NCBI GenBank assembly: GCA_043798985.1
Contig: JAZDOE010000001.1
Span: 309 to 64,308 of the forward strand
Direction of reading: 5' to 3'
DNA: 64,000 nt
DNA from: Candidatus Falkowbacteria bacterium
GTDB lineage: Bacteria > Patescibacteriota > Patescibacteriia > UBA11705 > JACRDX01
The notes below the pieces were generated by a model. It saw only the letters and a list, made by a program, of their open reading frames with translations. It was not told the origin of the DNA and did not search any database. Positions within the stretch are counted from its first letter, which is position 1; each line of letters starts with the position of its first letter. This document shows, piece by piece, positions 7,987 through 44,769 of this stretch. The translations under genes were made by a program, and so were the position numbers.

Positions 7987-8006
7987 AGACGTAGCATGCT
8001 ACGTCT
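7987..8006. repeat. Perfect 20-bp palindrome agacgtagcatgctacgtct (28 bp with one mismatch). Member of the GTAGAGACG...CGTCTCTAC family, sitting at the operator position of the groES promoter.
   Basis: It lies 7 nt downstream of the -10 (TAAGAT, 7975-7980) of a TTGACA-18-TAAGAT promoter. Same family as the copies at 21485, 40347 and 44742. Confidence 0.8.
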
Positions 8007-8039
8007 CTACAATTTAAAAAATAAATAATTTTTAAAATT

Positions 8040-8324
8040 ATGTTAAAACCTTTATCTGACCACGTAGTCGTAAAACCGCTTGAAGAAGAATCAAAAACCA
8101 AAGGCGGAATTGTTCTTCCTGAAACAGCGAAAGAAAAACCTCAACGCGGCGAAGTCATTGCAATTGGTTCAGGCAAACTTTTGGACAATGGTAGCCGCGC
8201 GCAACTGGAAGTAAAAGTCGGCTACAAGATTTTGTTTTCAAAATACGGACAAAATGAAGTGAAAATTGATGAACAAATTTATTACATTTTAACCGAAGCG
8301 GACATTTACGCGATTATTCAATAA
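8040..8324 (+). CDS. groES: Co-chaperonin GroES
   Basis: 94 aa with the typical GroES sequence (KPL.DRV...GGI.LP). Directly upstream of groEL. Confidence 0.95.
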   Translation: MLKPLSDHVVVKPLEEESKTKGGIVLPETAKEKPQRGEVIAIGSGKLLDNGSRAQLEVKVGYKILFSKYGQNEVKIDEQIYYILTEADIYAIIQ

Positions 8325-8330
8325 AATTTT

Positions 8331-9974
8331 ATGGCGAAACAAATTATTTTTAATGATCAGGCAAGACAAGGAATAAAACGCGGAGTTGATAAATTGGTCA
8401 ACGCTGTAAAAGTGACGCTCGGACCAAAAGGCAAAAACGTTGTTTTGGACAAAAGCTATGGCTCTCCGCAAATTTGCAATGATGGTGTGACGATCGCCAA
8501 AGAGATTGATTTGAAAGATCGTTTGGAAAATATCGGAGCGTCTTTGGTTAAAGAAGTTGCGAGCAAAACCAATGACATTGCTGGGGACGGGACAACGACC
8601 GCCGCGGTTTTGACACAGGCGATTTTCAGCGAAGGAATAAAAAATATCGCGGCTGGCGCGTCTGCTTTGGCAATTAAAAAGGGAATGGACAAGGGCGTGA
8701 ACGCGATTATTGAAGAACTGCGCGCGAACATTTCAAAACCGATTTCCAGCAAAGAAGAAATTACGCAGGTCGCGTCAATCGCCGCCAATGATCCGGTTCT
8801 TGGCAAAATTATTGCCGAGGCAATGGAAGAGGTTGGCAAAGAGGGCGTGATAACGGTTGAGGAATCGCAGGGTTTTGGCATTTCCAAGGAGGTGGTCAAG
8901 GGCATGCGTTTTGACAAAGGATATGTTTCGCATTACATGGTGACAAATACTGACCGCATGGAAGCTGAATATAATGACGCGTTTATTTTGCTGACTGACA
9001 AAAAGATTTCAAGCGTCCACGACATTGTGCCTTTGCTTGAAAAATTGATGCAAACCGGCAAAAAAGAATTGGTGATTATTGCCGAAGATGTTGATGGCGA
9101 GGCTTTGACAACTTTGGTTTTGAACAAATTGCGCGGCGTGTTTAACGTGCTGGCAATAAAAGCTCCGGGTTTTGGCGATAGACGAAAAGAAATGTTGCAG
9201 GATATTGCTGTTTTAACCGGCGGCAAAGTAATTAGCGAAGAAGTTGGATTAAAATTGGATAGCGTAGAAATTGAATCATTGGGGCGCGGCCATAAAATTG
9301 TCGCCACCAAAGATTTCACGACAATTATTGAAGGTCGCGGCGACAAAACCGAAATTGATGGCCGCGTCGCGCAACTCCGCAAAGAAATTGAAAAATCAAC
9401 TTCTGATTTTGATAAAGAAAAATTACATGAGCGCTTGGCAAAGTTGGCCGGCGGAGTGGCTGTGATAAAAGTTGGCGCGCCAACAGAAACTGAAATGAAA
9501 GAAATCAAATTGCGCGTTGAAGACGCGATCAACGCGACAAAAGCCGCGGTTGAAGAGGGGATTGTTCCTGGCGGCGGAGTCGCGTTATTACGCGCTCGCG
9601 CGGTTTTGGATCGCGTCCAGGTTGCGGACGACGAAAAAGTCGGATTGGAAAATTTACGCAAGGCGTTGGAAGTGCCGACCAAATTGATCGCGGAAAACGC
9701 CGGCAAAAACGGCGATGTAATTTTGGAAGAGATTAAACGTAGAAATGGAAATTTTGGTTATAACGCGGCAAAAGATATTTTTGAAGATTTGGTTGTTGCC
9801 GGAATTATTGATCCGACAAAGGTGACGCGATCCGCGTTGCAAAACGCTGTGTCAATCGCCGGAATGTTGCTTACAACCGAAGCTGTCGTGATAGACGAAC
9901 CAAAAGATGAAAAATGCAATTGTGGTGGACATGGCGCCGCTGCCGGATATCCGGGCATGGACGGAATGATGTAG
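8331..9974 (+). CDS. groEL: Chaperonin GroEL
   Basis: 547 aa with conserved GroEL motifs (AGDGTTTA, C-terminal GGM-type repeat ...GMDGMM). Confidence 0.97.
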
Positions 9975-10012
9975 GCAGGTGGATATTGTATTTTTATTTT
10001 GTATTTTCTATA

Positions 10013-42570: not shown

Positions 42571-43398
42571 TCAGCGCAGACTTTTTAACAGCTTAAGCGT
42601 TTGCTTGTAAGACATTTTTTCTGCCGGAGTTTCTATGATTCCGGCGATTTTTTTTAGTTTTGGATGGTTGATCAAGGCTTTGAACGCAGCAAGCCCAATT
42701 GTTCCTTTGCCAATATCTTCATGCCGATCTTTTCGCGAACCAAGCTCTGCTTTCGCGTCGTTCAGATGTAAAATTTTCAGTTTGTTTAATCCGATCGTGT
42801 TGTTAAATTGTTTTAACGTTTTATTTAACGCGGCGCTCGTTCGTAAATCATAGCCAGAAACAAACGCGTGACAAGTGTCCATGCAAACGCCGACGTTTTT
42901 GTTTTTTAGATTTTTAATAATGTAGCCGATTTCATCAAAAGCATCTCCAATAATTTTGCCGGCGCCGGCGGAATTTTCCAAAAGCAATTGAGGCGCGCCA
43001 GAATAGCCATCCAAGATTTGATTGAGAGATTTTATCGCAAGTTGGCGCGCTTGCATTTCCGTTTGCTCGCCGGCGCTGCCAATGTGTGTGATTACGTACG
43101 CCACGCCAAGTTTGTTCGCGATGTCCAATTCGCTTTTTATTGAAGCAATGGACGCGTGGCGGATTTTATTATTTATTGAAGCGAGGTTTATGTAATACGC
43201 GCTGTGAATGCAAACAGTTGAAAACCGAAAGCGCGCGCAATTTTGTTTGAACGCGTCAATTGATTTTTTTGTGTAGGTTGGTTTGCCACCGCGCGGTGAA
43301 CGCGAAAACATTTGAAAAACTTCGCAACCAAGTTGCGCGGCGCCTAAGGGCGCGTTTTGTATTCCGCCGGCGATGGAAACGTGAGAACCAAATAGCAT
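42571..43398 (-). CDS. nfo: Endonuclease IV (AP endonuclease family 2)
   Basis: MLFGSHVSIAGG N-terminus and conserved His/Asp/Glu metal ligands of Nfo. 275 aa. Confidence 0.9.
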   Translation of the reverse strand: MLFGSHVSIAGGIQNAPLGAAQLGCEVFQMFSRSPRGGKPTYTKKSIDAFKQNCARFRFSTVCIHSAYYINLASINNKIRHASIASIKSELDIANKLGVAYVITHIGSAGEQTEMQARQLAIKSLNQILDGYSGAPQLLLENSAGAGKIIGDAFDEIGYIIKNLKNKNVGVCMDTCHAFVSGYDLRTSAALNKTLKQFNNTIGLNKLKILHLNDAKAELGSRKDRHEDIGKGTIGLAAFKALINHPKLKKIAGIIETPAEKMSYKQTLKLLKSLR

Positions 43399-43484
43399 AG
43401 TTTAGAAAATTAGAATATCGAAATCCGAAACAAATTCGAAATTCGAATGTTTCAGACATTGGCAATTTCGTGCTTCGTGCTTGT

Positions 43485-44693
43485 TTAGGATTTCGGATTT
43501 CGTATTTCGAATTTTATTTTATGGATGTTTCTAATTACATGTTGCCCCGGCCTAGAATATTGCCAAGAGCCAACGATTTTAAGATTTGTTTGCGCGAGAA
43601 TCTTTTCAAGGTTAAGATTGAATGTTTGTTGTTTAATGTTAAAAGACGGGACAATGATAACGAGCGTGCCTGTTTTTTTCAAAACAACTGCCAGTTGTTC
43701 AAGGATTTCCGCGTAAAAAATTTCAAGTTCGCTGACCTGTTGTTTTATGACGTTCAACGGTTCATTGCCCCAAAGCGGTTTGCCTAAAAATGGTTCTGTC
43801 ACAATCACGTCAATGGAATTTTTCGCGACTTCATTGCTCAATATTCTGGCGTCCAGTTGGGCTATTTCAATATTGAATTGTTTGTTGGTTTGCTGTTCTA
43901 TCCATGCGATATTTTTGCGAGAATCTTCAACTGCTTTTGCTGAAAAATCAGAGCCGAGAATTTTTTTAAAACCAAGTAGCGCCGCTTGTTGTAAAATTGT
44001 TCCGGAGCCGCAGAATGGATCCAAGATTGTTGCGGTTTGTTTTGCTTCGCTTAAATTTAACATTATTGTCGCGACTTTTGGCGGCAACATACCTGATTCA
44101 GCGTCTTTGTTCGGTCTGTCGTAGTCAAATTTGGAGAACTTTTCAAATGGCTGGACTGCCAATGTGCGGCCAATTACAAGGGATTTCTCCCCCGCCAAGG
44201 CGGGGTCGAAATGACAGGTGCGTGCATCAGCCGAGAACAAATTAAATTCAGCGCCGGCGTCGGTTAAAAGTTTGTTTTTTTCGGTTGCAACGCTGGATAA
44301 ATATTTTTCGCCTTGTTGCGGATAAACAAATCTGCAGGGTTGTTCAATTTCTTTTTTAAGTTGTTTGCTCAAATTTATTGGTTTGTTTTTGCCGGTATAA
44401 TCATTGATGCCAAATATGATTTTTTTGTCCGTTTGCGGCAACAAAGACTTTATTGTTGCGCTAAGGTTGGTTGAGTCTGTTGTGCCAACAATTTCGCCGA
44501 TCTTAATTGTACCGCCTAAATGTTGAATCATTTGCTCCGCGTCTATTTTGGTTTTAAGGTCAAAAATAGCAAATTCTTTTGTTGATGCTAAACATTTCGC
44601 GATAATTTTGTCGCGTTTAAAAACTGCTTCTAATTCAGCAATGGATAATTCTGGTTGTCTGCCTAAAATAAAGAAATATTGCATATATCGCAT
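43485..44693 (-). CDS. Putative RNA (guanine-N2) methyltransferase, Trm11/TrmN-like (UPF0020 family), carrying an in-frame MITE insertion
   Basis: SAM motif I LDPFCGSGTIL and a motif-IV-like VTEPFLGKP. A perfect TATAAT lies 7 nt before the ATG, suggesting leaderless or short-leader expression. Contains the 17-aa MITE-encoded peptide TCHFDPALAGEKSLVIG. Confidence 0.6.
   Translation of the reverse strand: MRYMQYFFILGRQPELSIAELEAVFKRDKIIAKCLASTKEFAIFDLKTKIDAEQMIQHLGGTIKIGEIVGTTDSTNLSATIKSLLPQTDKKIIFGINDYTGKNKPINLSKQLKKEIEQPCRFVYPQQGEKYLSSVATEKNKLLTDAGAEFNLFSADARTCHFDPALAGEKSLVIGRTLAVQPFEKFSKFDYDRPNKDAESGMLPPKVATIMLNLSEAKQTATILDPFCGSGTILQQAALLGFKKILGSDFSAKAVEDSRKNIAWIEQQTNKQFNIEIAQLDARILSNEVAKNSIDVIVTEPFLGKPLWGNEPLNVIKQQVSELEIFYAEILEQLAVVLKKTGTLVIIVPSFNIKQQTFNLNLEKILAQTNLKIVGSWQYSRPGQHVIRNIHKIKFEIRNPKS
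44175..44216 (+). mobile_element. Short (42-bp) copy R3 of the MITE/RPE-like family, inserted in-frame within the methyltransferase CDS (which is read on the opposite strand)
   Basis: tacaagggatttctcccccgccaaggcggggtcgaaatgaca. The reverse complement translates in the gene's frame to TCHFDPALAGEKSLV. Confidence 0.8.
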
Positions 44694-44741
44694 TTATTAT
44701 AATGGATGGACCGATTTTCAGCAAATTTTTGTTGGTTGCGT

Positions 44742-44769
44742 GTAGAGACGAGATATATCTCGTCTCTAC
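44742..44769. repeat. Perfect 28-bp palindrome gtagagacgagatatatctcgtctctac (GTAGAGACG family)
   Basis: Reverse complement is identical. Intergenic, about 50 bp upstream of the methyltransferase start and about 140 bp upstream of the island E promoter. Confidence 0.85.

Follow-up and report, generated by a model that had tools for sequence, protein, structure and literature searches.

Dispersed palindromes near groES and ftsH in a Falkowbacteria genome: very probably double-foot REP elements and not heat-shock operators

What is a palindrome doing a few nucleotides downstream of the -10 of a groES promoter, when its relatives lie behind ftsH, inside a glycosyltransferase gene and between divergent genes? 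The stretch of DNA that raises this question is 64,000 nucleotides of contig JAZDOE010000001.1 (assembly GCA_043798985.1), referred to below as the window, and comes from a metagenome-assembled genome (MAG) of a Candidatus Falkowbacteria bacterium, a member of the Patescibacteria or candidate phyla radiation (CPR). The original prediction, made from the sequence of the window, offered two answers. The palindromes could be a repressor operator, possibly a heat-shock operator replacing CIRCE (controlling inverted repeat of chaperone expression), or they could be small mobile elements similar to repetitive extragenic palindromes (REPs) and bacterial interspersed mosaic elements (BIMEs). We argue for the second answer in a narrower form. 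The palindromes are very probably double-foot GTAG REP elements of the type that accompanies subclass 2.4 of the TnpAREP transposases, also known as group 4 of the REP-associated tyrosine transposases (RAYTs).

The window contains four complete copies of a palindrome of 28-29 nt, with the structure GTAGAGACG-(variable, self-complementary centre)-CGTCTCTAC, and a fifth that is truncated (Table 1). All five sites listed originally are real; the full elements extend slightly beyond the stated coordinates. Chance is excluded as their origin. Allowing one mismatch, GTAGAGACGAG has six matches in the window where 0.12 are expected, and AGACG-N4-24-CGTCT has four where 0.28 are expected; none of 100 shuffles reached the count in either case. 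The single consensus proposed at first, GTAGAGACGAG...CTCGTCTCTAC, fits copies 2-4 only, while copy 1 and the truncated copy belong to another subtype, ...ACGTAGCATGCTACGT..., and the truly conserved part is the 9-bp foot GTAGAGACG/CGTCTCTAC. The 5' foot is GTAG in copies 2 and 4 and degenerate in copy 1 (GTAA) and copy 3 (ATAG); the 3' end is CTAC in copies 1 and 4, CTGC in copy 2 and CTTG in copy 3. The core of copy 1 (7987-8006) is a perfect 20-mer, which becomes a 28-mer with one foot mismatch (GTAA/CTAC). Copy 3, of the AGGCAtTGCCT subtype, has the foot pair ATAG/CTTG. The truncated copy had been described as a half-site at the gyrA 3' end. It does lie just after the gyrA stop. Its agreement with the reverse complement of copy 1 (15 of 15 bases), however, shows it to be a shortened member of that subtype and not a chance half-site.

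Table 1. Palindrome copies (putative REP elements) and the groES promoter in the window
Feature	Positions	Strand	Sequence	Context
Copy 1	7983-8010	.	GTAAAGACGTAGCATGCTACGTCTCTAC	between the -10 (7975-7980) and the groES ATG (8040)
Copy 2	21483-21510	.	GTAGAGACGAGACATGTCTCGTCTCTGC	in frame in the glycosyltransferase (GT4) open reading frame 20850-22049
Copy 3	40345-40373	.	ATAGAGACGAGGCAtTGCCTCGTCTCTTG	29 nt, one-base centre; 61 nt after the ftsH stop
Copy 4	44742-44769	.	GTAGAGACGAGATATATCTCGTCTCTAC	perfect 28-nt double-foot palindrome, AGATATATCT subtype
Truncated copy	27986-28001	-	ATAGAGACGTAGCATG	left arm and centre, copy-1 subtype; just after the gyrA stop
groES promoter	7951-7980	+	TTGACA-18-TAAGAT	sigma-70-like; copy 1 begins 3 nt after the -10

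The same element is present in many other genomes. The pattern AGAGACGAG-N5-8-CTCGTCTCT was scanned against 185,579 species-representative genomes and found in at least 118 stretches from MAGs whose labels span about a dozen bacterial phyla, where a few tens would be expected in random sequence by a rough estimate. The flanks were not part of the search. Among the matches listed, 67 of 122 are flanked by GT...AC (about 0.5 would be expected by chance, again an estimate), and most of the rest are terminators with an A-run and a T-run that were caught by accident. The GT...AC members come from MAGs labelled as Patescibacteria (Moran-, Falkow-, Komeili-, Buchanan-, Parcu- and Saccharibacteria) and from others labelled as Omnitrophota, Ignavibacteria/Melioribacteraceae, Bacteroidota, Chloroflexota/Anaerolineae, Acidobacteriota, Planctomycetota, Calditrichaceae, WOR-3, Cyanobacteria and further groups. 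When only the 9-bp feet were required, a relaxed scan of the fetched loci (denoted below by L and a number) gave 109 copies, with the feet GTAGAGACG/CGTCTCTAC conserved. Their recurrent centres are AGGCA(N)TGCCT, which is the most frequent among the genome-contig copies, CATTGCAATG, CAAAATTTTG, CCCCGGCGGGG, TTGCA(N)TGCAA, AGATATATCT and TAGCATGCTA. Several of these subtypes may coexist in one genome.

How consistently are such centres self-complementary? An alignment of 29 distinct 28-mers to the stem ((((((((((((....)))))))))))) leaves 96.8% of the cells paired and contains 39 double-sided changes. Pairs 10-12 account for 35 of these, against one unpaired cell. None of 500 shuffles reached the covariation score, and in slid registers pairing falls to 32-57%. 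Some foot pairs compensate too (GTAA...TTAC, GTAGGGACG...CGTCCCTAC). Of the 21 copies that the scan pattern had not preselected, 18 have all three inner Watson-Crick pairs, for which the chance is 1.6% per copy. The folding energies of the window copies as single-stranded DNA lie between -6.6 and -12.3 kcal/mol, and their z-scores between -4.2 and -6.9 (copy 1, -6.6 and -4.2; copy 3, -12.3 and -6.9; copy 4, -11.3 and -5.8), and the truncated copy does not fold by itself. Judged by this covariation, the palindrome is a hairpin and not a pair of duplex half-sites.

Unsupervised clustering of the open reading frames (ORFs) of the family-bearing loci yielded one striking cluster of Y1/HUH transposase-like proteins, 170-260 aa long, in L036 (two genes), L080, L105 and L106. 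Every member contains a palindrome. Housekeeping and regulator families did not recur in many of these loci. Pfam Y1_Tnp recognizes two of four proteins, at 24.5 and 24.1 bits (cut-off 23), and matches to NCBIfam NF047646 (REP-associated tyrosine transposase, REP_Tyr_transpos) have E-values of 1e-13 to 1e-17, so far as scores can tell those of relatives of this equivalog and not of members. The proteins have the motifs PNH[ILF]H, WQ and YIxNN(P/H), seen in the alignment as PNHIH/PNHLH and YI(Q/I/R)(Q/N)N(P/H). All of these genes contain the palindrome in frame, at a distance of 8-17 aa from the preceding HUH motif, and it encodes peptides such as VETRHASSL, VETHCSASL and VETPRRGVST. In L105 further copies flank the transposase gene on both sides, a layout similar to that of a REPtron.

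The arrangement is not peculiar to these few genes. A profile search found 7,978 homologues at E<=1e-5 among 8,000 candidates scored, with source names such as 'transposase' and 'REP element-mobilizing transposase RayT'. Among the best 120 of them, 108 have a palindrome-encoded peptide after HUH, which begins with VET in 99 and has the form RD...VS, from the other open frame, in nine; many contain tandem partial duplications, e.g. VETPRQGVETPRQGVETPRRGVST. The palindrome family is thus tied to transposase genes that carry a copy in frame, and by their motifs we would place the proteins of L036, L080, L105 and L106 as TnpAREP subclass 2.4-like, or RAYT group 4.

These features match a kind of system that has already been described, and it is on this match of feet, hairpin and transposase that we assign the window elements to it. 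In the classification of Quentin, Siguier, Chandler and Fichant (2018, BMC Genomics 19:475; PMC6006769), subclass 2.4 of TnpA_Y1 equals Bertels' RAYT group 4. Its proteins have a median length of 194 aa and the motifs NH[IFV]H, WQ and YIxNNP, are abundant in Cyanobacteria and Bacteroidetes and scattered in other phyla, and are accompanied by REPs termed 'long' or 'double foot', with GT[AG]G at the 5' end and the complementary C[TC]AC at the 3' end (PMC6006769). Table S1 of that paper contains GTAGAGACG 15 times, including GTAGAGACGCACGGCCGTGCGTCTCTAC beside ACL24330.1 from Chloroflexus aggregans, and also GTAGAGACAAGGCATGCCTTGTCTCTAC. The elements discussed here have the identical foot GTAGAGACG/CGTCTCTAC and the same scattered cross-phylum spread; they form a 28-nt perfect hairpin with 5' GTAG, 3' CTAC, a 12-bp stem and a 4-nt loop; and the associated transposases have the same NH[IFV]H, WQ and YIxNNP motifs and an in-frame REP between HuH and Y. 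They differ from the catalogued cases in that the window has no transposase gene, in that several centre subtypes coexist with one conserved foot, and in their host, since the Patescibacteria are not mentioned in that paper. In the literature searched we found no paper linking RAYTs or REPs to Patescibacteria, and literature searches with the palindrome sequence strings returned unrelated primers and microRNAs only. What is new here is limited to a taxonomic extension: a double-foot REP system reaching Patescibacteria, and no new kind of system. The genomes of this group are small and thought to be poor in repeats.

Other known repeats are similar in part. The GTAG-tagged REP superfamily of Di Nocera, De Gregorio and Rocco (2013, BMC Genomics 14:522; PMC3733652), which includes SMAG-type REPs, also has a GTAG hairpin foot, is mostly intergenic near gene ends, and has in-frame intragenic copies as well as GTAG ends that supply TAG stop codons. 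Both of the latter features recur here: the truncated copy gives the DHH/DHHA1 gene (27990-28934, minus strand) its last three codons (I-E-T) and its TAG stop, and in L106 a GTAG foot is the stop codon of ftsH. Classical GTAG REPs have the tag at one end and often form inverted dimers (BIME or REPIN), whereas here one unit is tagged on both strands. The system of REP/BIME elements and TnpAREP (RayT, subclass 2.2) in E. coli resembles our case in combining a HUH/Y1 enzyme with a single-stranded DNA substrate, in which GTAG at the foot of the hairpin serves as a guide. However, the REPs of E. coli form imperfect, bulged palindromes that have only one foot, the transposase gene there has no REP embedded in it, and the enzyme belongs to another subclass with the motifs DHLH, WE and YIHYNP. 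A further parallel is provided by Rickettsia palindromic elements (RPEs), which are much longer, about 100-150 bp. They are likewise palindromic repeats tolerated in frame in protein-coding genes (PMC3733652), but they are CGTC-tagged in Di Nocera's scheme and restricted to Rickettsia.

Close relatives differ in the copies that they have. At groES the closest relatives with DNA available are L119 (GCA_016212745.1; GroEL 95% identical) and L120 (GroEL 87% identical). Both keep the groES promoter, TTGAC(A/C)...GCGCTAA(G/C)AT, and the palindrome is missing from both; the distance from the -10 to the ATG is about 36 bases longer in the window than in L119. Since the promoter is kept and the palindrome is not, the groES copy is a lineage-specific insertion into the groES leader.

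The glycosyltransferase gene tells a similar story. Copy 2 encodes VETRHVSSLQ, aa 212-221, in the interdomain linker of a GT4 protein; by Pfam, Glyco_transf_4 ends near aa 209 and Glycos_transf_1 starts at aa 221. The claim that this copy is in frame is borne out, and the question that accompanied it, whether related strains have the copy, receives a mixed answer. In the sister MAG represented by L122, the orthologue (75% identical) has a perfect copy at the same codons, GTAGAGACGAGATATATCTCGTCTCTAC, encoding VETRYISSLQ. Its centre is ATATAT where that of the window is ACATGT, and these two symmetric substitutions are a compensatory pair between orthologous copies. In L123, from a second close relative, however, the orthologue (72% identical) has an unrelated linker of nearly equal length and no palindrome. 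In addition, the first GT4 gene (GT1) of L122 has an in-frame REP insertion of 42-45 nt (L122:9133-9181, corresponding to window ~20010-20030) that the window orthologue does not have; within it a full REP, GTAGAGACGGGACATGTCCCGTCTCTCT, is preceded by a partial left arm, GTTGAGACGGGCAC. Tandem partial arms of this sort are common in RAYT genes, e.g. VETPRQGVETPRQGVETPRRGVST. An unrelated GT4 gene from a Moranbacteria MAG (L087:4224-4252) has a copy in the same interdomain linker.

Copies within genes are not confined to glycosyltransferases. In a crude ORF-based classification 35 of the 109 copies fall inside called ORFs, about 19 of these ORFs being longer than 300 aa. MAGs of different labelled phyla have in-frame copies in the NAD-dependent DNA ligase LigA (L014:3430-3458) and in ComEC (L011:6611-6639), and others occur in an M14 peptidase with a Por_Secre_tail (type IX secretion sorting) domain (L054:4466-4493) and in TPR proteins. 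Such tolerance is possible because two of the three reading frames through the palindrome are open. That 28-nt hairpins are accommodated in protein linkers and evolve there by compensation between sister species is noteworthy in itself, and it has a practical side for the annotation of MAGs, where the peptides VETxxxxS(L/T) and RDxxxxVS mark REP-derived codons. Among the remaining contexts, a Melioribacteraceae MAG (L078) has the copy-1 subtype ACGTAGCATGCTACGT upstream of a tRNA gene.

How might such copies arise? We envisage that, when DNA is single-stranded, for example at the replication fork, a copy would fold into a hairpin with a 12-13-bp stem and a 3-4-nt loop. The transposase would recognize the conserved foot GTAGAGACG together with the stem, and would cut and rejoin the single strand, so that copies would now and then be gained or lost at new sites. 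They would persist where harm is small, that is in intergenic and untranslated regions and in frame in protein linkers. The groES copy would then be an insertion into a 5' untranslated region, the GT4 copy a tolerated linker-coding copy and the gyrA/DHH site a decayed one. This scheme supposes that such a transposase exists in the genome from which the window comes and moves the window copies. Cutting and rejoining by a subclass 2.4 enzyme is proposed by analogy with the cleavage and strand transfer demonstrated in vitro for TnpAREP/REP pairs of E. coli, S. maltophilia and Marinomonas (PMC8266576).

Several points weigh against our assignment. The biochemistry just mentioned covers pairs from three other species and not subclass 2.4 (PMC8266576). 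A tblastn search of the 64-kb window found no homologue of the transposase. Two of the four Y1/HUH proteins score under the Pfam Y1_Tnp gathering threshold, and the NF047646 scores, 51-62 bits, are under the equivalog cut-off of 80. Four to five copies per 64 kb is a modest density. Finally, comparison of filled and empty sites (groES and L122 GT1) revealed no consistent target sequence or duplication, so the chemistry of insertion is not visible in these data.

An alternative that accepts the REP origin and adds a function to it is that some copies have been co-opted as RNA elements: copy 1 as a hairpin at the 5' end of groES mRNA, copy 3 as a stabilizer or weak terminator at the 3' end of ftsH. 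We consider this unlikely, though far from negligible. If transcription starts about 7 nt after the -10, the perfect 20-nt hairpin would come first in the groES transcript, and 5' hairpins are known to shield mRNAs from 5'-end-dependent decay in E. coli. A permissive terminator scan accepts copy 3 in one register, and in other genomes some copies have A-run and T-run flanks like those of bidirectional terminators (L006, L063). It has also been argued that many REPs are transcribed and act post-transcriptionally (Di Nocera et al. 2013; PMC3733652). On the other hand, copies 1 and 4 have no T-run, and a recent E. coli preprint calls the effects of REPs local and context-dependent. The groES copy is moreover not conserved in sister genomes, and any role that it has must for this reason be young and dispensable. 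Plain intrinsic terminators were considered separately and rejected, with no call at copies 1 and 4 and only a marginal match at copy 3, with an off-register stem. A search of the whole window against Rfam at gathering thresholds gave no match.

A bolder version of the REP interpretation concerns its spread. The REP/RAYT-2.4 system with the foot GTAGAGACG, or its REPs alone, might be spreading horizontally between phyla, carried by phages, and the 5' end of the groES mRNA might have been rewired by a fresh insertion. The basis for this is that the foot is near-unchanged in about a dozen labelled phyla, ultra-small CPR bacteria included, and that viral contigs have it without a transposase. We regard the proposal as speculative and quite improbable. 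If it were true, the hairpin would be a phage-borne element that has regulatory side effects at some sites, and this would contrast with the vertically inherited, 'domesticated' system described for Proteobacteria. In any case the recurrence of the same foot in many phyla and in phage contigs bears on how REPs and RAYTs spread.

The viral occurrences can be described as follows. Predicted viral contigs from IMG/VR contain the exact pattern GTAGAGACG-N10-11-CGTCTCTAC in at least 120 stretches (L124-L243). In L128 two copies (L128:559-586 and L128:2416-2443) lie between ORFs that, with translations judged by eye, resemble a phage head module with a putative major capsid protein and prohead protease. 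A pair of copies spaced exactly 1857 nt apart occurs in five of the loci (L128, L129, L131, L145 and L152). No RAYT-like protein is present in the 120 REP-bearing viral loci (1.05 Mb).

What, then, of the operator with which the question began? A dimeric repressor replacing HrcA, and acting on groESL and ftsH through the palindrome, was an attractive idea. The contexts that suggested it are correct as described: the core of copy 1 lies at the usual place of CIRCE, after a -10 that ends at 7980; copy 3 follows ftsH; and the window has no canonical CIRCE, as its consensus TTAGCACTC-N9-GAGTGCTAA has no match there with up to three mismatches. In L106 there are copies both before and after ftsH. 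However, the resemblance to a CIRCE/HrcA operator ends with an inverted repeat just downstream of the groES -10. There is no sequence similarity to CIRCE, and two relatives keep the same groES promoter and have no palindrome there. The ftsH copy of the window is downstream of the gene and not at its promoter. Elsewhere the copies are dispersed in contexts that have nothing to do with heat shock, in coding sequences (LigA, ComEC, peptidases, GT4), at 3' ends of genes, before a tRNA gene and in phage contigs. The inner stem varies but always compensates, which fits a folded strand and not the fixed half-sites of a duplex.

The suspected association with chaperone and protease genes also finds little in its favour in the wider sample. 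Among the family-bearing genome loci listed, only two have DNA similarity to the groEL or ftsH regions of the window, L112 to the former and L106 to the latter, and by a rough estimate this is about what chance would give. In L112 the copy is 30 nt after the stop of the upstream gene and 158 nt before groES. L106 (CAZHXI010000010.1) has, within 8 kb, five REP copies of five centre subtypes and a RAYT-like gene. It was taken for a close relative on account of ~70% nucleotide identity in gyrA and ftsH, and this was rejected; its FtsH protein is only 55% identical, so the locus is distant. By these comparisons of sequence the operator interpretation is largely refuted, and we hold it to be very improbable. 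A tempting false lead is thereby removed, since a palindrome at the CIRCE position of a CPR groES does look like a new heat-shock operator.

Two further explanations can be dealt with briefly. Sites for a tyrosine recombinase (Xer/dif-like, with 11-bp arms and a 6-7-bp centre) or for an organizer of duplex DNA (parS-like) come to mind on inspection of the 11-6-11 layout of the 28-mers and the conservation of their arms across phyla, in both of which dif and parS resemble them. This is extremely unlikely: a unique dif site is hard to reconcile with the four to five copies that lie within 37 kb here, or with the five within 8 kb of L106; the centres are palindromic and covary; copies lie inside genes; a Y1/HUH transposase and not a recombinase or ParB recurs in the loci; and the published catalogue puts exactly these sequences under TnpAREP 2.4 (PMC6006769). 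That the palindromes are assembly or library artefacts of MAGs, from which all inspected GT...AC-flanked matches among those listed derive, has next to no chance of being correct, given that the centres differ by lineage, that two independently assembled sister MAGs show compensatory divergence at the same codons, that in-frame copies lie in genes with Pfam domains and that the same REPs stand beside protein accessions of named species such as Chloroflexus aggregans (PMC6006769).

We return to the double-foot REP reading for a few observations on the surroundings of the copies. Pfam identifies the products of the neighbouring genes as Cpn10, GT4 (Glyco_transf_4 and Glycos_transf_1), FtsH, GyrA and DHH/DHHA1. 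Copy 4 is intergenic, as was claimed for it, with divergent genes at 43485-44693 (minus strand) and 44991-45455 (plus strand) on either side. At 30538-30585, inside the ORF 29425-30684, GGAGAGACGAGC...GCTCGTGTC forms an imperfect inverted repeat whose left arm resembles that of a REP and whose arms are separated by 24 nt; it may be an old REP copy that has expanded, or may be due to chance.

About 105 nt around copy 4 (44729-44831) are 78% identical to L072:2612-2716 from the sister MAG. The order of the block is REP, then CCATATAWAWACCATTTT, then a AGGGTTGTG hairpin, and the L072 copy is identical to copy 4. We considered synteny and rejected it; tblastx finds no common flanking genes, hence what the two share is a block of ~105 nt and not an orthologous locus. 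The REP may travel inside a larger composite unit of this kind. A second motif, AAAWTKWAGGGTTGTG, is intergenic at 30735-30749, 44799-44813 and 60828-60842 (plus strand) and at L072:2684-2698. Its reverse complement occurs at 7953-7962, inside the groES promoter, and two of the sites, followed by ...ACCCTC, can form a hairpin. As the 10-mer TAGGGTTGTG, the motif near copy 4 has four matches where 2.06 are expected, a count that 15 of 100 shuffles reach and that does not exceed chance.

Between the ftsH stop and copy 3 there are two small hairpins, at 40284-40298 (AATGC-CCC-GCATT) and 40328-40344 (CCCGCC-ATCGA-GGCGGG). TTTTA follows the first of them, which has the look of the genuine ftsH terminator. 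Copy 3 itself lies upstream of a TTGACA-17-TAAGAT promoter, at a distance of 15 nt from its -35. This promoter-like site after ftsH (40388-40416) has the same hexamers, TTGACA and TAAGAT, as the one before groES (7951-7980), with spacers of 17 and 18 nt, respectively.

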